Part shown: positions 20,450-33,282 of the stretch, piece by piece | Layout: the number at the start of each line of letters is the position of its first letter | Numbering within the stretch: the first letter of the stretch is position 1 | IMG/VR virus record: IMGVR_UViG_3300045988_114316 | Coordinates: 1-33,282 of that record | DNA length: 33,282 nucleotides | DNA from: a virus | Strand: one strand, 5' to 3' | Notes under the pieces: generated by a model | What the model saw: the letters and a program-made list of their open reading frames with translations, nothing else | Databases searched by the model: none | Told to the model about the DNA's origin: nothing | Translations under genes and position numbers: made by a program

Positions 20450-20878
20450 ATGATTTATTATTACAAAGTCGAAGAAGAAGGAAAACTGAAAATGATTGGG
20501 ACGCAGTCATTCCCAGCAGTAGAAGGGCAGACGTCCGTCACGGAAGAAGAGTACAATCAGCTGATGAACGAGATCAAAGCACATGCTGAAACAGTACGCG
20601 GCTACGCAGATCAGCTGGTATCTGGAAGCATTGAGTATTCTGCAATTCCGGAAGATTACCGGGAGGAAGCGGGAATTTCCGCAGCACCGCAGTTTGCAGA
20701 CAAAATCATCGCCGGAGACATTACCATCGATGATATACCGTCTGAAATCAAAGACCGTGTGCAGGAAATCGTCGACAGCAGACCTAAAAACCCGTATGGA
20801 ATCAGCGATGAGTTATGCGAAACGATCAAGCAGGATACTGTAGACGAGATTGTAAGCGAGGTAAGTGAAAATGAGTAA
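20450..20878 (+). CDS. Hypothetical acidic protein within the tail-fibre cassette (possible fibre assembly factor)
   Basis: 142 aa; RBS AAAAAGGAGG. Confidence 0.35.
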   Translation: MIYYYKVEEEGKLKMIGTQSFPAVEGQTSVTEEEYNQLMNEIKAHAETVRGYADQLVSGSIEYSAIPEDYREEAGISAAPQFADKIIAGDITIDDIPSEIKDRVQEIVDSRPKNPYGISDELCETIKQDTVDEIVSEVSENE

Positions 20879-21515
20879 TAAAACGGATCTGCAGGCGAAT
20901 AACGCAGACCTGCAGCAAATTTTGCAAGCAGTTCAAGCTCTTCCTGCGGCAAATTCGTGGGGGGGGGGGTCAACCATAATTGAACCGGGAAGCGAAGCGG
21001 TCACGATCCCGGCTTACACCGATACGGAGCTGACCGTGAATCCAGTGCAGACGGAAGAAAAAACCGTTACACCATCAGGCAGTCAGCAGATTGTCACACC
21101 GGCAGCCGGCAAGTATCTGAGTAAAGTGACCGTCGGAGCTATTCCGGATTCGTACATGGACTTCATCTCGTTTGTCGGATACTCGCAAGTTGAAAAAGTG
21201 ACCTTTACACCATCAGCAAACACGACATTAAACAGAAAAACAATAAATCACTCGCTGGGTGTGAGGCCGAAAATGGTGATGATACTATCTGATATGATGG
21301 AAATAAGATCGCAGCAAAATCTATATTTTTCAGTAGCCGTAAGTCGGGACGGATCCTCTACGCTGACCGCGCTACAATTCATATCGTATGCTACTGACGT
21401 AGACACAAGGGACTATCCGATGAACGTAACGGCTTCGACTGCAGAGTTTATAAGCGATGCAGCCGGACTCTACTACACCGGAGGACAGGAGTATACCGTT
21501 TTATTATTTGCGTAA
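20871..21515 (+). CDS. Tail fibre protein D. A chimeric paralogue (N-terminus like gene B, C-terminus like gene A) carrying an in-frame G11 tract.
   Basis: ATG 20871 with RBS GAGGTAAG (the track ORF starts at GTG 20865); WGGGS is encoded by tggggggggggg. Confidence 0.45.
   Translation: MSNKTDLQANNADLQQILQAVQALPAANSWGGGSTIIEPGSEAVTIPAYTDTELTVNPVQTEEKTVTPSGSQQIVTPAAGKYLSKVTVGAIPDSYMDFISFVGYSQVEKVTFTPSANTTLNRKTINHSLGVRPKMVMILSDMMEIRSQQNLYFSVAVSRDGSSTLTALQFISYATDVDTRDYPMNVTASTAEFISDAAGLYYTGGQEYTVLLFA
20959..20969 (+). repeat. Homopolymeric G11 tract inside the tail-fibre gene D coding sequence
   Basis: Read directly (aaattcgtggggggggggtcaacc). Confidence 0.9.
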
Positions 21516-21533
21516 TCAGAAAGGAAGGACATC

Positions 21534-21989
21534 ATGAGCATGAACAAAGAAGAACTGGTAAGTTATCTGAAAGATGTAAGATTCACCGCATCAGATCAGA
21601 CAGCAGTAAAGGGTATCGAGCTATACCCGGAATGGGCGGTCGGTATCGAGATCACACAGAAAATGATCGACGACGGGCAGAACCGGTATCGCTGTGACGG
21701 AATTTTGTGGCGAACAGGAACACCACACACGACACAAGAGAACTGGAGGCCGTCGATTTACACCGCATCGATCTGGACGGCGATCAACGCAGAACACGCC
21801 GGAACCATCGAGGATCCGATTCCGGTTCCGGAACAGCTGACATCGTTTGAATACGAATGGGGCAAATACTACAGTGAATCTGGCACGCTGTACATATGTG
21901 ACCGGCAGGGCGGAAAAGACGGCGACACCTACACACTGGCTTACAAGCCGAGCGCGTTGGTCGGTCACTATTTCAGCGTAGTCGAATAG
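21534..21989 (+). CDS. Hypothetical protein with CBM5/12 (ChtBD3)-like Trp/Tyr-rich carbohydrate-binding repeats
   Basis: RYRCDGILWRTGTPHTTQENWRPSIYTASIW resembles Y.C...HTS..W.PS...LW. Confidence 0.35.
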   Translation: MSMNKEELVSYLKDVRFTASDQTAVKGIELYPEWAVGIEITQKMIDDGQNRYRCDGILWRTGTPHTTQENWRPSIYTASIWTAINAEHAGTIEDPIPVPEQLTSFEYEWGKYYSESGTLYICDRQGGKDGDTYTLAYKPSALVGHYFSVVE

Positions 21990-21997
21990 GGGGAACA

Positions 21998-22360
21998 ATG
22001 GAACAGATTTTCAACCTGATTTTGGACAATCTGATCGGGATAGCCTGTGCAGGACTTGCGGCCTACGCAGTGAAAACGCTATCACGCATTTTGAAAAACA
22101 TGCAGGGCGTGATGACAGCGGAAAAAGTGAACTGCAGGGAGAAGATTCGCCGGTTTGGCGAGTTTTACGTTACCACCAACCAGATCACCGTAGAAGAATA
22201 CGACGATCTGAAAGAAATCTATGATGCCTATCACGCGCTGGGAGGAAACGGGGCAATGACCGAACTGGTAGAACGCTGCAAGGATCTTCCTGTGGTACCG
22301 GTCAGAACGATCAGAAACCCGTACTACACGAATGAAAACGGGATAGAACCAGGGAAATAA
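21998..22360 (+). CDS. Hypothetical membrane-anchored protein (N-terminal TM; lysis-associated position)
   Basis: 120 aa; hydrophobic NLIGIACAGLAAYAV. Confidence 0.4.
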   Translation: MEQIFNLILDNLIGIACAGLAAYAVKTLSRILKNMQGVMTAEKVNCREKIRRFGEFYVTTNQITVEEYDDLKEIYDAYHALGGNGAMTELVERCKDLPVVPVRTIRNPYYTNENGIEPGK

Positions 22361-22426
22361 ATATGATATAATGGACAGGTCAAGAGAACATGGAAGCGGT
22401 TAGCCCCCTTGAAAGGGGGTGATGCA

Positions 22427-22498
22427 ATGAGTGATTATGAAGTGTTAATGATCGTATTAACAATACTGATTCTGATTGTATCCGTAAAAAATAAGTAA
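22427..22498 (+). CDS. Hol-Tox-like small hydrophobic peptide (23 aa, MSDYEVLMIVLTILILIVSVKNK)
   Basis: Y-E-x-L then a hydrophobic stretch then a KNK terminus, as in putative holin-like toxin peptides; RBS AGGGGGTG 5 nt upstream, embedded in a hairpin. Confidence 0.45.
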   Translation: MSDYEVLMIVLTILILIVSVKNK

Positions 22499-22620
22499 CC
22501 GCCCTCCTGTGCTAAAGTTGGCGGTTACATACAGCTAAAGTTGGCGACCGTTTTCAACGGTTTCCTCTTGACATTATATTAGCACACGAATAGAAAAAAA
22601 TCAATAAACAGATCAATTCA

Positions 22621-22645
22621 CCCTGCCACATCGGTAGGGTTTTTA
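22621..22645 (+). terminator. Intrinsic-terminator-like hairpin (CCCTGCC-acatc-GGTAGGG + T5) 20 nt upstream of the holin start
   Basis: Read directly; preceded by a TTGACA box at 22568-22573. Confidence 0.35.
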
Positions 22646-22664
22646 CGTGGAAAGGAGAAAAACA

Positions 22665-22925
22665 ATGAAAGTAAACTGGAAGGTAAGACTAAAAAATAAG
22701 ACGTGGCTGCTGGCGTTTTTGGGAACAATTATCACATTTATCTACCAGATTTTAGGCATGATCGGTATTGTTCCACCGATTTCTGAGGACAATGTAACGC
22801 AGATCATCGGCATTCTGGTTAATCTGTTGGTAGCAATAGGCGTTGTGCAGGATCCGACTACCGCCGGTGTAGCCGACAGCCAGCAGGCTTTAGAATACAG
22901 CGAACCACGAAAGGAAAACGAGTAA
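22665..22925 (+). CDS. Holin, phage phi LC3 family (Phage_holin_1)
   Basis: MKVNWKVRLKN...two TM segments...VQDPTTAGVADSQQAL matches the phiLC3 holin family; RBS AAAGGAG. Confidence 0.8.
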   Translation: MKVNWKVRLKNKTWLLAFLGTIITFIYQILGMIGIVPPISEDNVTQIIGILVNLLVAIGVVQDPTTAGVADSQQALEYSEPRKENE

Positions 22926-23914
22926 TGGCTACAGCAAAAATGACAGGAATTGATGTATCCTACTGGCAGGGAAAACCAGGTCTATCTGCATTTAAAACGT
23001 TCAAAAACGCTGGTTGGGATTTTATCGTCGCCCGTATTGGCTATGCGTCCGGTGGGCAGCGCTATCCGGACAGCACGTTTGAAACAAACTATAAAAACAG
23101 TAACAGCGCCGGTCTGCGGATCGGCGTCTACTTTTACAGCAATGCCCGCAGCGCGGCAGAGGGAAAAGCCGAAGCGAACTATGTTATCAGCCTGCTGCAG
23201 GGAAAAGCGCTGAATCTGCCGGTATTCATTGATGTGGAGGACAATGCGACATCGGGAACGGCAAGCAAAACAAATCTGGCCGCAGCCTGCAAAGCGTTTT
23301 GCGAAACCATCGAAGATGCCGGATATATGGCCGGAGTATATGCGTCCACATCATGGTTTCAATCCAAAATCGGCAGTTTGGGTAATCTAAGTAAGTGGGT
23401 AGCACAATATAACGATCGTGTGACCTACAGCGGAGATTATGATATGTGGCAGTATTCCAGTACGACAACGGTGAAAGGATTTTCCGGACGGCGGGACGTG
23501 AATAAATGCTACGTTGGTTACGACGACAATTTTCTGATCCGGCCAAAGATGAATCTGCTGATCCGCAAAGGCTACGGTCTGAAATCAAAAAAACTCGGAA
23601 CACTGGATAAAAACGGAATTTACCGGGTTACCAAAACAGCCAGCAATGGAACACGGGGATATATCCCCGGGAAAGGCTGGGTAACGGTGACGGCAAAATA
23701 TGCAAAAGAAGTTGACTTTACGGATAATGTCCGGGTAAAGACCAAAGGAAAACTGATTTACCGGGAATCGCCACTGCTATCGTCAAAAAACAAGGGAAAG
23801 TTAAAAGCGAACACAGTATATATTGTATCCCGCATCAGCCAAGACGGAACACGAGGATACGTTCATGGATATGGTTGGATTACAATCGCAAATAAGTATG
23901 TAGCATTTGTTTAG
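22925..23914 (+). CDS. Endolysin: GH25 muramidase plus two SH3b-like cell-wall-binding repeats
   Basis: GIDVSYWQG...FIVARIGY...GLRIGVYFYS is a GH25 signature. There are two C-terminal ~65-aa repeats (GTRGYIPGKGWVTV and GTRGYVHGYGWITI). Confidence 0.9.
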   Translation: MATAKMTGIDVSYWQGKPGLSAFKTFKNAGWDFIVARIGYASGGQRYPDSTFETNYKNSNSAGLRIGVYFYSNARSAAEGKAEANYVISLLQGKALNLPVFIDVEDNATSGTASKTNLAAACKAFCETIEDAGYMAGVYASTSWFQSKIGSLGNLSKWVAQYNDRVTYSGDYDMWQYSSTTTVKGFSGRRDVNKCYVGYDDNFLIRPKMNLLIRKGYGLKSKKLGTLDKNGIYRVTKTASNGTRGYIPGKGWVTVTAKYAKEVDFTDNVRVKTKGKLIYRESPLLSSKNKGKLKANTVYIVSRISQDGTRGYVHGYGWITIANKYVAFV

Positions 23915-23940
23915 GGGCCTTGTGCCCCTTATTTTTATTG
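23913..23940 (+). terminator. Rho-independent terminator GGGGC-cttgt-GCCCC + TTATTTTTATT
   Basis: Read directly after the endolysin stop. Confidence 0.7.
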
Positions 23941-24012
23941 AAATTGGCACAAAAATTGCTATTATAAAATAAAAATAGATACCATAGGGGTAAATATTTG
24001 TCAAGTAAATGA

Positions 24013-24043
24013 TTGAAAAAATCCTATAAAAAAAGTATAATGG
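24013..24043 (+). promoter_or_regulatory. Sigma-A-like promoter TTGAAA-17-TATAAT
   Basis: Read directly; followed by RBS AAGGAGG and ATG 24073. Confidence 0.5.
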
Positions 24044-24072
24044 GGTAAAAGAAATAAGAAGGAGGTGACAAT

Positions 24073-24507
24073 ATGGGTAAATATAGAGCTATGGATATTG
24101 CAAAATACGTGATTTCAAAATGCACAGAGGATAAAAAACCAATAACAAATTTACAGCTGCAAAAAATTCTGTTCTTTATTCAACGGGATTATTTGAAGGA
24201 AAATTCTTGTCCGCTTTTTTCAGATGATGTAGAAGCGTGGCAATTTGGCCCAGTAGTCGCCGATGTCTATTATGCCTTTTGCGGTATGGGATCGATGAAA
24301 ATTCTTGGTGAATATACTCCATCAACGAGCATTGAAAAAAATGATAGATGTTTTATAGATAAAATCGTCGAAGCAAAAAGAGAAAAATATCCGTGGGATC
24401 TCGTAAGAGAAAGTCATAAAAAAGACGGAGCTTGGGACACCATTTTTCAAAATGGAGAAGGAAATCATTGCATCATACCGATCAAACTAATAGCAGAAAG
24501 AGGATAA
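24073..24507 (+). CDS. Panacea-domain (DUF4065, SocA/PanA-like) protein
   Basis: ITNLQLQKILFFIQRDYLKENSCPLFSDDVEAWQFGPVVADVYYAF matches the DUF4065 core (...KLLY..q...l...g.plf.d.ieAw.yGPVv..vY). Confidence 0.65.
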   Translation: MGKYRAMDIAKYVISKCTEDKKPITNLQLQKILFFIQRDYLKENSCPLFSDDVEAWQFGPVVADVYYAFCGMGSMKILGEYTPSTSIEKNDRCFIDKIVEAKREKYPWDLVRESHKKDGAWDTIFQNGEGNHCIIPIKLIAERG

Positions 24508-24508
24508 C

Positions 24509-25309
24509 GTGTTTGAAAGCAGTGTAGTTAATGAAGATGAAAAAAGGCAGGCGCTAATTGAGCTTTTAAAGGAACTATCAATTCGTCAGGATATTCTTGA
24601 AAGTGGGGAAGAAAAGGAATATTTTCTTGCTAAGTTTCAAGAAGTATATAGCTATCCGAGTAGTGATGAACTGTATCGGCATTACTACTCGGATATTTTT
24701 GCCGTTATTTCGCAAATCGATCAAAAATTAATTGATGGAGATAAAGAGACTCTGTCACAAAATATGGAGTTGTTTAAAACATACTGTGAATTGCAATTTC
24801 AGGAGCAGAAAATATCCGATAACTTTTTAAAGGCTATTCGTAAATTATATGACCATGTAAATTTAGATGTTGCGAGATTAAACTACTTTTCCAAAATCAT
24901 GGAAACGTCAGAACAGAATTTAAAAGATATTGCTCCTAAGATAGATTCTTTACGTACTGAGCAAAAAGAAATACAGGCAAATATAGATGATGCTAAAAAG
25001 ATTGGAAGAGACTATATCACTATTTTAGGAATTTTTGCATCGATTGTATTGGCATTTACAGGAGGAATTGCTTTTTCTACTTCTGTATTAGAAAATATTA
25101 ATGCAGTTAGTCCAGTAAGACTTGCAGCAGTAATTATTGGACTGGCATTTGTTTTAATTAATGTCGTATATATACTAACTCGTTTTATCCAGGAAATAAA
25201 TAAAAGGAAAGAAGAAAAAATTAAAACACCGCTCTTTATTGTTGCTATTGATATAGTTTTGATCATAGCATCATTAATCATTTTTATTTACTATCTATAT
25301 ACAATTTAA
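24509..25309 (+). CDS. Membrane protein with an N-terminal helical cytoplasmic domain (~175 aa) and three C-terminal TM helices; candidate toxin/effector partner of the Panacea protein
   Basis: GTG start 1 nt after the upstream stop with RBS GAAAGAGGA; TM segments ITILGIFASIVLAFTGGIAF, LAAVIIGLAFVLINVVYIL and LFIVAIDIVLIIASLIIFIYYLY. Confidence 0.6.
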   Translation: MFESSVVNEDEKRQALIELLKELSIRQDILESGEEKEYFLAKFQEVYSYPSSDELYRHYYSDIFAVISQIDQKLIDGDKETLSQNMELFKTYCELQFQEQKISDNFLKAIRKLYDHVNLDVARLNYFSKIMETSEQNLKDIAPKIDSLRTEQKEIQANIDDAKKIGRDYITILGIFASIVLAFTGGIAFSTSVLENINAVSPVRLAAVIIGLAFVLINVVYILTRFIQEINKRKEEKIKTPLFIVAIDIVLIIASLIIFIYYLYTI

Positions 25310-25318
25310 GTTTATATA

Positions 25319-25348
25319 GGGGGCCTCGTGCCCCTCTTTTTTTTATTA
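25319..25348 (+). terminator. Rho-independent terminator GGGGC-ctcgt-GCCCC + T9
   Basis: Read directly; near-identical to the 23913 terminator. Confidence 0.7.
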
Positions 25349-25377
25349 GAAAATGTTGAAAAAATAGTAAATACTGC

Positions 25378-25406
25378 TTGACGTATCACTCAATGAGTGA
25401 TATAAT
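25378..25406 (+). promoter_or_regulatory. Promoter TTGACG-17-TATAAT whose spacer is a 17-bp perfect palindrome ATCACTCA-A-TGAGTGAT (operator-like)
   Basis: Read directly. Confidence 0.6.
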
Positions 25407-25435
25407 ATAATTAAAGAAAGGAGGAAAACACATGA

Positions 25436-25552
25436 ATGGGTAAACACGATAAAAGAAAAGAGCCGATAGACTTAAGAGACGTAGCAGTCCAGTCAATATC
25501 CGCTCTTGTGGTTGGAACCATATTACTACTTATCGACAAGTACATAATATGA
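25436..25552 (+). CDS. Small membrane peptide (38 aa, MGKHDKRKEPIDLRDVAVQSISALVVGTILLLIDKYII)
   Basis: RBS AAAGGAGG at 25417-25424; C-terminal TM segment; followed by a GGGGC-ttcg-GCCCC hairpin. Confidence 0.4.
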   Translation: MGKHDKRKEPIDLRDVAVQSISALVVGTILLLIDKYII

Positions 25553-25708
25553 ACAGGGGCTTCGGCCCCGTTCCACCTATACTATACCCGATAGAAAATC
25601 ATGTGTCAACGATTATGCATGGAATACTATATTATATGGGCATTGCTTTTATATCAATAGGCATTGTGCAAGGAATTAGGGCGATTTATCTATATCGGAG
25701 GAAGAGAA

Positions 25709-26080
25709 ATGGAAAACAGGATTAAAGAAGCACGTAAATCAGCAGGTATTACACAAGAAGAAATGTCGAAACTTTTTAGGATTCCGAAAAGGACAATAGG
25801 AAACTGGGAAACTGGGGAACGGAAACCAGCGAAATATGTTGAAGATCTGATTGTTGAAAAAATAGAAAATATGAAAAGCGAGGAAAAAAACATGACGATA
25901 ATGAAAGATGATTTGATCTTAAGAAAAGAAGGAAAGTACTGGACACTATATCTTGGCGACTACTCCCTCAGCTGTGGGGACTTAGAAGATATGACGGAGA
26001 GCATAGAGGAAGTAGGGAAGAGGTTAGAAAACGGGGAAGCTGCTGAAGATATCATAAAAGAATTTAACAATTTCAGATAA
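25709..26080 (+). CDS. XRE-family HTH transcriptional regulator with a C-terminal domain of unknown function
   Basis: IKEARKSAGITQEEMSKLFRIPKRTIGNWETGERKP is a Cro/C1-type HTH; RBS GGAGGAAG; internal ATG of the track ORF. Confidence 0.7.
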   Translation: MENRIKEARKSAGITQEEMSKLFRIPKRTIGNWETGERKPAKYVEDLIVEKIENMKSEEKNMTIMKDDLILRKEGKYWTLYLGDYSLSCGDLEDMTESIEEVGKRLENGEAAEDIIKEFNNFR

Positions 26081-26085
26081 AACAG

Positions 26086-26125
26086 CTGTACAAAAGGTCG
26101 CTTACGTTGGCGATCTTTTTTCATT
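26086..26125 (+). terminator. Terminator-like hairpin GGTCGC-ttacgttg-GCGATC + T6
   Basis: Read directly after the XRE gene. Confidence 0.5.
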
Positions 26126-26138
26126 ATAATTGCACATT

Positions 26139-26241
26139 TTGACATATTTCGACAACTGAATAATATATAATGAAAATACCCCGTATATAGGGACAATAGT
26201 TCTTCGAAAATGAACCGGTAATAATATCGGTTCATTTTTAC
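26139..26241 (+). ncRNA. Candidate small RNA: promoter (TTGACA-16-TAATAT) plus a ~65-nt transcript ending in a terminator hairpin AATGAACCG..CGGTTCATT + T5; no plausible ORF
   Basis: Read directly; the only ORF is 3 codons long. Confidence 0.25.
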
Positions 26242-26382
26242 GTAATAATGAAACAAGAAAGCGTATATAAACACATTCCATAAATAAATGATGATCAGAA
26301 AAAGTGGCACGTTTTTGGCACGGTATGACACGATTTTAGGCTAATATTTGGAAATAAATGTAATAAAAATAGACATTCACAG

Positions 26383-26438
26383 AATCACTGCACGCATTGA
26401 AATTTGAACGTTTTTCAATGCGTGCAGTGATTTTTTAA
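26383..26438 (+). terminator. Perfect 20-bp-stem hairpin (AATCACTGCACGCATTGAAA / TTTCAATGCGTGCAGTGATT) + T6, just beyond the integrase 3' end
   Basis: Read directly. Confidence 0.6.
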
Positions 26439-26491
26439 AAGATATGTATGAGAAGGTGCAGGTGGCGATATAATGTTGAAATTTCAGTGAT

Positions 26492-27547
26492 TTAAACAAT
26501 GTTGACACGCGTATGGCACGGATCAGAAACATATTCATTCATTTTTTCTCTGGCAGATTCCATAGATTTTTCCGTGTGGTGCGTATAAATTTGCGCGGTA
26601 ACTTTTATGGACGAGTGACCCATCAAAACCTTAGCCACATTGATCGGGACACCGGCGTCCTGGAGATCCGTGCAAAACGTATGCCTTAAACAATATGGAA
26701 CCAGATCTGGAGATACTGAGAAAGGGTGCTCTTCCTCCATGCTTTTTTTGAATGACTTCCAGCTTTTTTGAAATGTACTATTCGTGAATCTTTTACCTCT
26801 GGGTGTCGTAAAAACCGGCTCAAATGGTTTCAGATCGAGTTTTCTCAATTCCTTTGCGTAAACATCTACTATAGGTACTTTCCTGACACCTGCAGAGGTT
26901 TTTGGAGCCTTTTTATTTCCGTTGTAATCGATGTTAGAGCGTACATAGACCAGATTATTCTTTAAATCTATGTCACGGCCTTCGAGGGCGGCGACCTCCA
27001 TAGTTCTCAAACCACAAAAAAGCATCATTTTGAGGTACATTCCCAACGGGTGGTGATCTGATACCTCTAATATGATTCTTCGCTCAGAATCGCTTATAGA
27101 GCGCCTTGAAATGTGCTCACTGACCATTGGGCGTTTAATGTTTTTTACAGGATTGGCACGAATAAGATCGTTGTCTGCAGCGGTTTCAAAAAAGGATTTA
27201 ACCACTGCCAAATATTTGCTATATGTGATCTGAGACAACCCGCTCAACGAGTTTGCCCAGATCTGCACGTTTTTCTGCGCGATCTTGTTGAGGGGGAAAT
27301 TTCCATACATACTGCAAAATGAATTTAAGATGCAGTGAATATTTTTGTTCCATTTTCCGTTTATAGCGGGCCTGAATGTTTCAGGCCATTCTTTTGCCCA
27401 TTGCGAACAGGTTATATTTTTTCGGATAATAAGAACATTTTCGTCAATATCGCGGATTTTCAAAGCCTTTTTTACTTCAAAGTCCTTTTCGTCTTTTGCC
27501 CTAATGAAATACCGCTGTCTCTCATACGTAAAAGATTTCCTTATCAT
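26492..27547 (-). CDS. int: Tyrosine-type integrase (site-specific recombinase)
   Basis: C-terminal LRHTFCTDL...LMGHSSIKVTAQIYTH (R, HxxR and Y catalytic motifs). The start is set at the second ATG (MIRKSF), which is preceded by AAGGAGGA; the first ATG at 27571 has no RBS. Confidence 0.9.
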   Translation of the reverse strand: MIRKSFTYERQRYFIRAKDEKDFEVKKALKIRDIDENVLIIRKNITCSQWAKEWPETFRPAINGKWNKNIHCILNSFCSMYGNFPLNKIAQKNVQIWANSLSGLSQITYSKYLAVVKSFFETAADNDLIRANPVKNIKRPMVSEHISRRSISDSERRIILEVSDHHPLGMYLKMMLFCGLRTMEVAALEGRDIDLKNNLVYVRSNIDYNGNKKAPKTSAGVRKVPIVDVYAKELRKLDLKPFEPVFTTPRGKRFTNSTFQKSWKSFKKSMEEEHPFSVSPDLVPYCLRHTFCTDLQDAGVPINVAKVLMGHSSIKVTAQIYTHHTEKSMESAREKMNEYVSDPCHTRVNIV

Positions 27548-27582
27548 GATATCCTCCTTTCTGTCTCTCATTTTGTAAAATT

Positions 27583-27604
27583 ATGCCTCCTGAATTACCA
27601 GGAG
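27583..27604 (-). terminator. Hairpin GCCTCCTG-aattac-CAGGAGGC between the Ltp-like gene and int
   Basis: Read directly; weak U tail on the minus strand. Confidence 0.3.
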
Positions 27605-27734
27605 GCGGATAAATGAATTACGTCATTGATGGTAGCTGTGCTTTTGTTAACATTTCCACAAACTGTAAAACATAAAATCAAAGCAGCAATCTTTGTAAAA
27701 ACTTAATATGTTTTTTTATCTATTTCCTCCTTCA

Positions 27735-28253
27735 TTAATAACCTACTTGAGATACTCCATATTCAGCTTGATCTTGTGTGAATCCCTCGTATAATAGTTG
27801 TTCGATCAATCCTTCACGGGAAAATGAAGAGGTATCAAGGTATTCTTGTGCTTTTTTAGCCGCTTGTTCTTTCCAGTTAGCCCCGCAGTTGTCAACTGCG
27901 TAAGTCGCTTCTTCTGTTGTATAGCCTTCATATTCTAACTGATCGATTAAACCGGTTCTCGAAAATGACATTAAACTCAAATAACTTTGCGCTTGATCTA
28001 ATGCGTTCTGTTCTCCTATGGTAGCATCATTTTCATTATCAGAAGCTTTCGTGTTGTTTTGAGTCTCAGTGTTTTCCTCAGTAACTATTTGATCATTATC
28101 TTTTGGTGCAGTTGTTGTTTCGTCATCGCCTCCAGACATTGCACCAATTATTCCGATAACGAGAATAACGACAATGACAATAAACCACCATTTCTTATAA
28201 AACGGTTTTTTCACTGGGGGGGTAACGTTACTTGAGTTCATTTCTTTCTTCAT
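27735..28253 (-). CDS. Ltp-family superinfection-exclusion protein (two Ltp repeats, N-terminal membrane anchor)
   Basis: Two copies of the A...A..YL....FSR.GLI.QL.YEGFT..EA.YAVD motif. The start is set at the second ATG (MKKEMNSS), which is preceded by AAAGGAG. Confidence 0.8.
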   Translation of the reverse strand: MKKEMNSSNVTPPVKKPFYKKWWFIVIVVILVIGIIGAMSGGDDETTTAPKDNDQIVTEENTETQNNTKASDNENDATIGEQNALDQAQSYLSLMSFSRTGLIDQLEYEGYTTEEATYAVDNCGANWKEQAAKKAQEYLDTSSFSREGLIEQLLYEGFTQDQAEYGVSQVGY

Positions 28254-28428
28254 TTTTCTTTCTCCTTTTTTTCTTTTTATTAAAACGGTCAAGCCGAATT
28301 AATCTATATAAATATTGTTTTTGATAGAAAGATTTATTCGCAATAGCTTAAAAACACAAATGTTCGATAATGGTTATATTTTTAGCACCCCTCTCGAACG
28401 GACTCTCGAAGTATACAAAGAATTGCTA

Positions 28429-28503: not shown

Positions 28504-28605
28504 ATGGAACAATTAGACTCTATTTACAAACTGCTTCAGCATGCGTCAGAAAAACAATTAAAAATCATTTATGCGTTTATCCGGCAGCTGGTAGAGGGGT
28601 ATTAA
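28504..28605 (+). CDS. Small ORF (33 aa, MEQLDSIYKLLQHASEKQLKIIYAFIRQLVEGY), convergent with the repressor gene and overlapping its 3' end
   Basis: RBS GAGGTG 6 nt upstream; it is the last 33 codons of track ORF 28315-28605. Confidence 0.35.
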   Translation: MEQLDSIYKLLQHASEKQLKIIYAFIRQLVEGY

Positions 28606-28982
28606 CCCCTCTTTTTTATGATCTCAATCGCCTGCTCTAAAATCTCCCATTCGTCGGAAGAAAGCGCGACAAGCATTTCGATGAACCTTCTTTTGAACGA
28701 CTCTTCTTCTTCGTTCAAAATCTTGGCAACGAATTTTGCAATCTCTTCCTCTTTGGATAACTGTTCAAACATTTCGCCCTGGCCATATTTTAGCCAATCC
28801 ATACTGACGTTATATTTGCTGCAGATATTGATAAAAATAGGCTCTTTTAGCTCCATTCGTTTCAATCTATCCAATTCAATGTTATTTATCTCGTCCGGAG
28901 TCGCACCAACTTCTTGCGCAAACTCCCGCCTTGATTTTTTAAAATGATCTCTGATTTGCCTGACTCTTGTTCCGATAGTCAA
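28602..28982 (-). CDS. CI-like XRE-family repressor
   Basis: TTG start with RBS AGGAG; N-terminal HTH IGTRVRQIRDHFKKSRREFAQEVGATPDEINNIE; divergent from the early operon. Confidence 0.8.
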   Translation of the reverse strand: MTIGTRVRQIRDHFKKSRREFAQEVGATPDEINNIELDRLKRMELKEPIFINICSKYNVSMDWLKYGQGEMFEQLSKEEEIAKFVAKILNEEEESFKRRFIEMLVALSSDEWEILEQAIEIIKKRG

Positions 28983-32809: not shown

Positions 32810-33282
32810 AAGCATATAAAGGCTTTGATGAAAATTTAAAATGCAGAGATTTCCAGTACGAGATTGGAAAAGAATACGAAGAGACAAATGCAAAACTGTG
32901 TGAAACAGGTTTTCACGCATGCGAAAATCCTATAGACGTTTTTGGATACTATACACCAGCAAACAGCCGTTATTGTGAAGTAGAGCTGGAAGATGTAACT
33001 GATGAATCATCTGATGATAGCAAAAAATGCGGGAAAAGAATTCACATAAATGCAGAGATTGGAATAAAAGGGATTGTTGATGCGTTTATAAAATTCACAT
33101 TAGATCATATTCCGTCAGGAAATCATACGGCAACCAATACCGGAGACCGGTCAGCGGCAACCAACACCGGAGACCGGTCAGCGGCAACCAACACCGGATA
33201 CCGGTCAGCGGCAACCAATACCGGAGACCGGTCAGCGGCAACCAACACCGGATACTGGTCAGCGGCAACCAACACCGGAGAC
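32806..33282 (+). CDS. Repeat-containing protein, 5' part: conserved N-terminal domain (KGFDENLKCRDFQYEIGKEYEE...CETGFHACENPIDVFGYY) followed by 9-aa tandem repeats SAATNTGDR. It runs off the window end.
   Basis: ATG 32806 overlaps the upstream stop (ATGA). The open frame continues to the window edge and is in phase with the fragment at 1-350 if the termini are joined. Confidence 0.7.
   Translation, partial: MKAYKGFDENLKCRDFQYEIGKEYEETNAKLCETGFHACENPIDVFGYYTPANSRYCEVELEDVTDESSDDSKKCGKRIHINAEIGIKGIVDAFIKFTLDHIPSGNHTATNTGDRSAATNTGDRSAATNTGYRSAATNTGDRSAATNTGYWSAATNTGD
33127..33282. repeat. Tandem 27-bp coding repeats (about 5.8 units)
   Basis: Read directly. Confidence 0.9.

Follow-up and report, generated by a model that had tools for sequence, protein, structure and literature searches.

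A prophage-borne Panacea and membrane protein gene pair assigned by homology to toxin cluster T4 of the PanAT family

The described systems closest to the locus analysed here are the PanAT pairs, in which a Panacea-domain antitoxin, PanA, is paired with a toxin, PanT, and among these the pairs of toxin cluster T4, approximately 40 of which, from Firmicutes for the most part, are listed in Dataset S1 of Kurata et al. (2022, PNAS 119:e2102212119; PMC8832971). One T4 pair, WP_095295401/WP_095295403 of Helicobacter sp. 13S00482-2, is marked 'TA', i.e. experimentally validated (PMC8832971): the PanT acts as a toxin, which its own PanA neutralises (Kurata et al. 2022; PMC8832971). The toxin brings transcription, translation and replication to a halt at the same time and causes strong depolarisation as judged by DiSC3(5), with the SYTOX Green signal unchanged, i.e. 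no large pores are formed (PMC8832971). It is described as coiled-coil-like in its N-terminal region, with transmembrane (TM) helices at the C terminus (PMC8832971). [quoted passage not shown] In the literature we found no report of a defence phenotype for T4 PanATs and no description of a phage challenge of one.

We analysed a DNA stretch of 33,282 nucleotides (IMG/VR record IMGVR_UViG_3300045988_114316, positions 1 to 33,282; 'the window' from here on) that originates from a temperate phage, probably one of Firmicutes. Between the GH25 endolysin and the HTH gene and tyrosine integrase of this phage lies a compact two-gene unit (Table 1), with panA coding for a Panacea-domain protein and panT for a membrane protein. 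The original prediction, read from the letters of the DNA, had proposed that the two genes form a self-contained, translationally coupled module with a Panacea antitoxin and an effector of an undescribed family; the gene coordinates and the GTG start one nucleotide after the panA stop codon proved to lie where it had placed them, and each gene is preceded by a ribosome-binding site (Table 1).

Table 1. Features of the cassette and of its phage neighbourhood, in window coordinates (L166, a second metagenomic contig)
Feature	Positions	Strand	Remarks
Holin	22647-22925		Upstream of endolysin
GH25 endolysin	22925-23914		
Zero-difference block versus L166	23717-25336	+	Endolysin 3' end, both terminators, promoter, panA, panT
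Intrinsic terminator, upstream twin	23913-23936	+	Ends lysis operon; AGGGGCCTTGTGCCCCT + T-run; hairpin scan 23913-23929
Sigma-70-like promoter TTGAAA-17-TATAAT of two-gene operon (putative)	24013-24041	+	11/12 consensus matches
RBS AGGAGG of panA	24060-24065	+	7 nt before ATG; read from sequence
panA (gene 1), single-domain Panacea (DUF4065) antitoxin	24073-24507	+	144 aa; ATG start, TAA 24505-24507
Internal RBS AGAAAGAGGA of panT	24495-24504	+	Within panA end; GAGG 24500-24503, 5 nt before GTG
panT (gene 2), T4-cluster PanT toxin (by homology)	24509-25309	+	266 aa; GTG start, 1 base after panA TAA
TM1 of PanT	25013-25090	+	Residues 169-194, YITILGIFASIVLAFTGGIAFSTSVL; most conserved stretch of the family; hydropathy and model
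TM2 of PanT	25115-25183	+	Residues 203-225; hydropathy and model
TM3 of PanT	25232-25300	+	Residues 242-264; hydropathy and model
Intrinsic terminator of cassette, downstream twin	25319-25342	+	GGGGGCCTCGTGCCCCT + T8; hairpin scan 25319-25335
HTH gene	25664-26080		
Tyrosine integrase	26492-27571	-	

As judged by homology, the cassette belongs to the already described PanAT family and, within it, to toxin cluster T4. In BLASTP alignments PanT shares 35% of 238 aligned columns with the validated toxin of Helicobacter sp. 13S00482-2 (L072:2778-3590; E 1e-32), and PanA and the antitoxin of that pair are 40% identical across 142 columns (E 4e-34). The contig that carries this pair, L072, was recovered by our profile scan of GTDB species genomes, and has the same 11-nt gene overlap as is given in Dataset S1. 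Searching phage records with PanT by tblastn led to a prophage of Helicobacter rodentium ATCC 700285, in which the gene for a 144-aa Panacea protein overlaps by 20 nt with that for a 294-aa membrane protein (34% identity to PanT, E 6e-26); Dataset S1 lists this pair, WP_084310206/WP_026943962, in the order A then T, at distance -20 and in cluster T4 (PMC8832971). Further listed T4 hosts – Lactimicrobium, Schaedlerella DSM 106076 and H. mesocricetorum – turned up among the relatives found with the family profile. The original claim that gene 2 matches nothing recognisable and represents an undescribed effector family thus does not hold: the protein is a T4 member in the sense of Kurata et al. 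2022. In generic databases PanT matches phrog_5763 (E 6e-28), which carries no assigned function, and has no match above threshold in Pfam or NCBIfam; the T4 toxin family as a whole is represented by no model in Pfam, NCBIfam or PADLOC and by no solved structure. Matches of PanT to Cas5b, LeoBC, LmuB and MkoC in PADLOC-DB 2.0 (E 2e-5 to 2e-3, 14-22 bits) were rejected as compositional, since they all fall on one coiled-coil stretch and the models are unrelated to each other, and the sub-threshold Pfam matches to Spc7, Vma12 and DivIC were rejected as compositional likewise.

The assignment of gene 1 as a Panacea/SocA-type protein was borne out by a match to Pfam PF13274, SocA_Panacea (59.4 bits against a cut-off of 25.7 bits, E 8e-16), and the protein also matches phrog_1281 (E 7e-36). 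PanA consists of the Panacea domain alone, with no additional N-terminal domain and no DNA-binding domain, and a search of PADLOC-DB 2.0 gave no match. The residues W56, G59, H115 and W121 of PanA are invariant. The Panacea domain being the SocA domain, one may ask whether the pair works as a type VI, SocAB-like system, in which PanA, rather than blocking the toxin by binding, would hand it over to ClpXP or another protease to be degraded constantly. The NCBIfam model SocA_antitoxin (NF047745) does match PanA with E 3.7e-24; however, the score of 85.4 bits lies below the cut-off of 190 bits and PanA is therefore no SocA equivalog. Moreover, PanT is unrelated to SocB, ClpXP is unlikely to take a polytopic membrane protein as its substrate, and PanA neutralisation in E. 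coli is independent of both ClpXP and Lon (PMC8832971), all of which renders delivery to a protease highly improbable. Complexes of PanA with PanT have been pulled down for five PanAT pairs, the Helicobacter T4 pair not being among them (PMC8832971).

PanT is predicted to consist of a cytoplasmic helical domain (residues 1-168) followed by three C-terminal TM helices, as the original prediction had it. Hydropathy places the TM segments at residues ~170-194, 203-225 and 242-264, and the AlphaFold2 model, computed with 68 homologues in the input, is all-helical with a pLDDT of 87. In this model an N-terminal bundle within residues 3-98 (helices 3-23, 33-47, 60-71 and 79-98) is followed by an unbroken long helix, residues 104-196, which continues straight into TM1, then by TM2 and TM3. 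The loop between TM1 and TM2 is short and uncharged, whereas that preceding TM3, QEINKRKEEKIK, is rich in K/R and predicted to be cytoplasmic, and this distribution of charge points to an N-in, C-out topology. Motifs invariant across the family are RHYYSDIF (57-64), KLYDHxNLDxAR (112-123) and, in TM1, YITILGIFASIVLAFTGGIAFSTSVLENI (169-197), with the columns Y169-L194 invariant or almost so among 68 PanT sequences. Both hydropathy and the model fit the published description of T4 toxins, with an N-terminal helical part and C-terminal TM helices.

A survey of the gene neighbourhoods of PanT homologues had been suggested as a check on the original prediction, and we carried it out on 160 loci gathered by PanT similarity alone, 80 of them from GTDB species genomes and 80 from IMG/VR. 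Scanning IMG/VR with the single PanT sequence yielded nothing; a family profile was required to reach the relatives. The loci contain 165 PanT-like ORFs, four at a contig edge and 161 with upstream sequence, and a Panacea-like ORF lies immediately 5' of panT on the same strand in 159 of the 161. Of the two exceptions, one has its toxin gene split by an insertion but retains panA in place (L062), and the other is an N-terminally truncated toxin remnant (L068). All 138 distinct partner proteins match PF13274, and the gaps between the two genes are mainly -20 to +8 nt. The pairwise identity matrices of PanA and PanT correlate with r = 0.83 as compared to a permutation maximum of 0.08, which indicates that the pair is inherited as a unit. 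We found no conserved third gene: 139 upstream neighbours represent 122 Pfam families, among them some repressors, recombinases, Bro-N proteins and endolysins. The pairing, together with the homology of both proteins to a validated PanA and PanT, argues for the originally proposed toxin-antitoxin module carried as prophage cargo. The family is large: searching 1.84 billion representatives with a profile retrieved 2,596 clusters (50% identity) at E <=1e-3 and 572 at E <=1e-30, and the best 150 of the 2,596 matches are 208-379 aa long, most of them covering nearly the whole profile. It is widespread in gut Clostridia, Negativicutes, Helicobacter, Campylobacter and the phages of these bacteria.

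Signals for independent expression of the cassette are present at consensus level. The TTGAAA-17-TATAAT element is found as originally described, and it plausibly drives a panA–panT operon; this rests on its position and falls short of proof, since promoter-like matches as a class are no more frequent in this AT-rich region than in shuffled sequence (17 found as compared to 15.3 expected). Terminator-like sites, in contrast, are in excess over expectation (15 found as compared to 3.4 expected), and the two terminators flanking the cassette, predicted to be nearly identical, share 20 of 23 bases (23914-23936 and 25320-25342). The location of the panT ribosome-binding site inside the end of panA, 5 nt ahead of the GTG, suggests that the two genes are translationally coupled. 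Similar signals accompany the pair elsewhere in the family: a promoter-like match of at least 10/12 lies within 160 nt 5' of panA at 43% of 145 loci, as compared to 6% of control windows, and terminator-like sites are found at the end of the pair at 34% of loci, as compared to 1% of controls.

A phage moron in the sense of Hendrix and Juhala is an independently transcribed cargo gene, expected to have its own promoter and terminator apart from neighbouring operons, to deviate in base composition and to be absent from close relatives in which the genes on its two sides adjoin. Here, the sequence signals set the cassette apart from the operons on either side, and its GC content is 32.4%, as compared to 43.3% for the whole window (11 points lower) and 46.6% for the endolysin, the low-GC stretch extending past the cassette from ~23800 to 26600. 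As for relatives, blastn of positions 20500-28400 against INPHARED phages returned none, the endolysin has only three distant relatives in IMG/VR, and the sole close relative, contig L166, has an identical copy of the cassette and a swapped neighbouring one. A search of the window and of L166 for a tRNA gene that could serve as an integration target found none. The location of the pair could alternatively mean that PanT is an accessory of the lysis module – a second holin, an antiholin-like timer or a superinfection-exclusion membrane protein – for it is a three-TM protein encoded directly 3' of holin and endolysin, and its closest homologue (57% identity) is likewise encoded behind a lysis cassette, one of other families (Dp1 holin, Amidase_3). 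We consider this explanation very improbable: a terminator separates the pair from the lysis operon, a putative promoter of its own precedes it, the phage already has a classical holin as well as an Ltp-type exclusion lipoprotein adjoining int, and known holin systems have no place for a cytoplasmic Panacea partner. Neither does the lysis setting hold across the family, with amidase endolysins making up only 3/139 upstream neighbours and most contexts unrelated to lysis, and the validated homologue is encoded on a chromosome and carries the label 'NotPhage'.

The comparison with L166, which encodes an identical PanT, bears on the mobility of the cassette. The block without a single difference (Table 1) is preceded by 35 differences in 23338-23716, within the endolysin, and ends at the downstream terminator, where the T-run differs in length by 2 nt; after 25343 the sequences are unrelated, L166 having another promoter and a different gene at this place. 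Similarity returns at 26132-26469 and ends again 22 nt before the stop codon of the integrase. An identical cassette amid diverged or replaced flanks shows a recent exchange between diverging phages. On this sequence comparison, the mosaic is joined at the downstream terminator, and the stretch between the lysis genes and int behaves like a slot for cargo. In the closest homologue panA ends 1 nt before panT, as it does here; another close homologue is chromosomal and adjoins a PemK fragment.

We consider it likely, as one combined reading, that the cassette is independently transcribed prophage cargo, located in a temperate phage at its lysis-distal end, and that it acts as a T4 toxin-antitoxin operon, in which free PanT would depolarise the membrane and PanA would neutralise it. 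Toxicity, neutralisation and depolarisation are carried over from the homologue at 35-40% identity; membership, pairing, architecture and mobility come from the present analysis. The operon would be expressed constitutively from the prophage, and PanT would be inserted in the cytoplasmic membrane by its three C-terminal helices with the N terminus inside the cell. Left free, it would be expected from the validated homologue to collapse the membrane potential and halt growth, probably by way of a small ion-conducting or membrane-perturbing oligomer around the conserved TM1 rather than a large pore. Of the originally proposed 'membrane-disrupting' effector, action at the membrane stands, while the word 'disrupting' is too strong given that the validated homologue depolarises without SYTOX-detectable pores. 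PanA, made from the same mRNA just 5' of panT, would keep the toxin inactive, most likely by binding the cytoplasmic helical domain or the stalk of PanT directly, as in type II systems.

Toxicity is the step at which a different explanation is to be weighed: PanT, albeit a PanAT homologue, may be non-toxic in its native Firmicute host and serve as a membrane-anchored signalling or scaffolding protein, with the Panacea protein as its partner or regulator. Dataset S1 gives a phage-borne C. difficile T4 member as 'not Toxic' in E. coli (PMC8832971), and eight PanTs in total were non-toxic in that screen (PMC8832971); the toxicity of T4 members is, consequently, not guaranteed. The large conserved cytoplasmic domain, with its RHYYSD and KLYDHxNLDxAR motifs, also exceeds the needs of a simple membrane-poisoning peptide. 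However, the C. difficile result may reflect the surrogate host, non-toxicity in a heterologous Gram-negative host being weak evidence, and the sole T4 member with a result on this point is a genuine, neutralisable toxin. The strict two-gene linkage, the gene overlaps and the patchy spread over unrelated contexts and phyla are, furthermore, typical of toxin-antitoxin modules, and we regard a non-toxic PanT as unlikely.

Given a toxin-antitoxin operon, phage defence or inter-phage competition on the one hand and prophage stabilisation (addiction) on the other appear about equally likely as its role. In the former case the release of PanT would be set off by a cue that acts on PanA. A more specific proposal, possible if rather doubtful in our estimation, would have the cassette serve as a prophage-borne abortive-infection or inter-phage competition device, in which Panacea senses a phage cue and releases a structurally new class of toxin: a helical cytoplasmic domain and a rigid stalk helix leading into an invariant Gly/Ser/Thr-rich TM1 that would oligomerise into a small ion channel and form no pore. 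As the effector is a member of an experimentally anchored family, the locus does not amount to the discovery of an undescribed one. A family model could, on the other hand, be started from the present alignment, the invariant motifs and the confident structure prediction, and the strict linkage to PanA combined with the recent exchange of an identical cassette makes this a clean natural case for asking whether prophage-borne PanATs serve defence or addiction.

Among known systems, the pair of Helicobacter sp. 13S00482-2 (WP_095295401.1/WP_095295403.1) resembles the cassette in its antitoxin-then-toxin order with abutting or overlapping genes, in its single-domain Panacea antitoxin of ~145-150 aa (40% identity) and in its toxin, ~270 aa long and helical or coiled-coil in its N-terminal part, with C-terminal TM helices and the shared TM1 motif YITILGIFASIVL...FSTSV. 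It differs in being chromosomal ('NotPhage') rather than prophage cargo, and in its gene junction, an 11-nt overlap as opposed to a 1-nt gap. The T4 pair of the H. rodentium ATCC 700285 prophage (BK070140; WP_084310206.1/WP_026943962.1) shares the prophage location, the 144-aa PanA and a partner with three C-terminal TM helices; its proteins are, however, only 34-35% identical to those of the cassette, its genes overlap by 20 nt, and it resides among Mu-like phage genes rather than after a lysis cassette.

More distant parallels come from other toxin clusters and from other families. The PanTs of E. coli STEC O31 (T3) and Bartonella (T12/D11) are likewise neutralised by Panacea and depolarise the membrane, and in the Bartonella pair the Panacea domain contacts the segment of the toxin immediately before the TM region. 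These toxins are, however, small peptides of unrelated sequence with a charged N terminus that form SYTOX-permeable pores, whereas T4 toxins reach ~270 aa and have a large folded domain in the cytoplasm, and permeabilisation is not seen with the T4 member assayed. The type VI system SocAB of Caulobacter crescentus has the same Panacea/DUF4065 domain in its antitoxin, but there the antitoxin serves as an adaptor for ClpXP and the toxin, SocB, acts by blocking the DNA sliding clamp, while the partner encoded here is a membrane protein. Finally, RmrT/RmrA (RosmerTA) of Gordonia phage Kita differs in its ImmA/HTH-type antitoxin, in its unrelated toxin and in the pore formation observed for it; like the cassette it is a module of two phage genes, the toxin being anchored in the membrane by its C terminus; this toxin depolarises the membrane, and the module has been shown to defend against phages, thus providing a functional precedent for a role in defence.

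The interval between PanAT, the two-gene toxin–antitoxin cassette, and int, the tyrosine integrase gene, is judged from a comparison of two contigs to be an exchangeable cargo slot, because positions 25343-26131 of the window are replaced by unrelated DNA (positions 2028-2793) in L166, a second metagenomic contig that is otherwise near-identical. The window segment holds a 38-aa ORF and the HTH gene at 25664-26080; the replacement DNA carries its own promoter (TTGACA-17-TATACT) and a gene of 136 aa. Similarity resumes at 26132-26469 (95.6% identity) and ends 22 nt short of the int stop codon at 26492, beyond which L166 contains GC-richer, coding-looking DNA where the window has the integrase. 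This arrangement fits a candidate attP core at approximately 26440-26469, with L166 representing a putative prophage–host junction. A scan for tRNA genes found none in the window or in L166.

A second small cassette (25378-25573) lies immediately beyond the hairpin and T-run that terminate PanAT (see the table). The 38-aa ORF that it encodes is without a Pfam match, and the product appears to be a small membrane peptide similar in kind to type I toxins or holins.

Features of the small cassette 3′ of PanAT and of the lysogeny module
Feature	Position	Strand	Remarks
Promoter TTGACG-17-TATAAT	25378-25406		extended -10 TG
GGAGG	25420-25424		ahead of the 38-aa ORF
38-aa ORF, MGKHDKRKEPIDLRDVAVQSISALVVGTILLLIDKYII	25436-25552		charged N terminus, one TM helix
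GC-rich hairpin	25551-25573		after the 38-aa ORF
Ltp-type lipoprotein gene	27735-28292	-	adjoins integrase; two PF07553 repeats, E 2e-33
cI-like HTH gene	28602-28982	-	next after the lipoprotein gene

The start and the end of the contig both fall within the same 27-nt tandem repeat, GGTCAGCGGCAACCAACACCGGAGACC, present in 4.4 copies at 7-124 and in 5.7 copies at 33128-33282. The assembled contig probably represents a phage genome that is circular or terminally redundant and was broken inside a repeat-containing gene.

Among the loci retrieved as carriers of relatives of the toxin PanT, two hold decayed copies of panT. In L062 (3625-4804) the gene is split by an insertion of ~70-300 nt while the antitoxin gene panA is intact; in L068 (189-1380) the N terminus of the toxin is replaced and no panA is recognised, an ORF of 147 aa (189-632) lying upstream. 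A further locus is L002, from the Streptococcus satellite phage Javan360 (MK448453), where a 144-aa Panacea ORF at 2183-2617, absent from the annotation, abuts QBX09618, an annotated hypothetical protein and distant PanT relative. Thus a phage satellite also bears a PanAT pair, the antitoxin gene having been overlooked in the deposited annotation.

Finally, the lysogeny module of the phage encodes, beside the integrase, an Ltp-type lipoprotein with PF07553 repeats, and so the phage is already equipped with a classical exclusion gene of its own: this lipoprotein is of the same family as the superinfection-exclusion protein of TP-J34.
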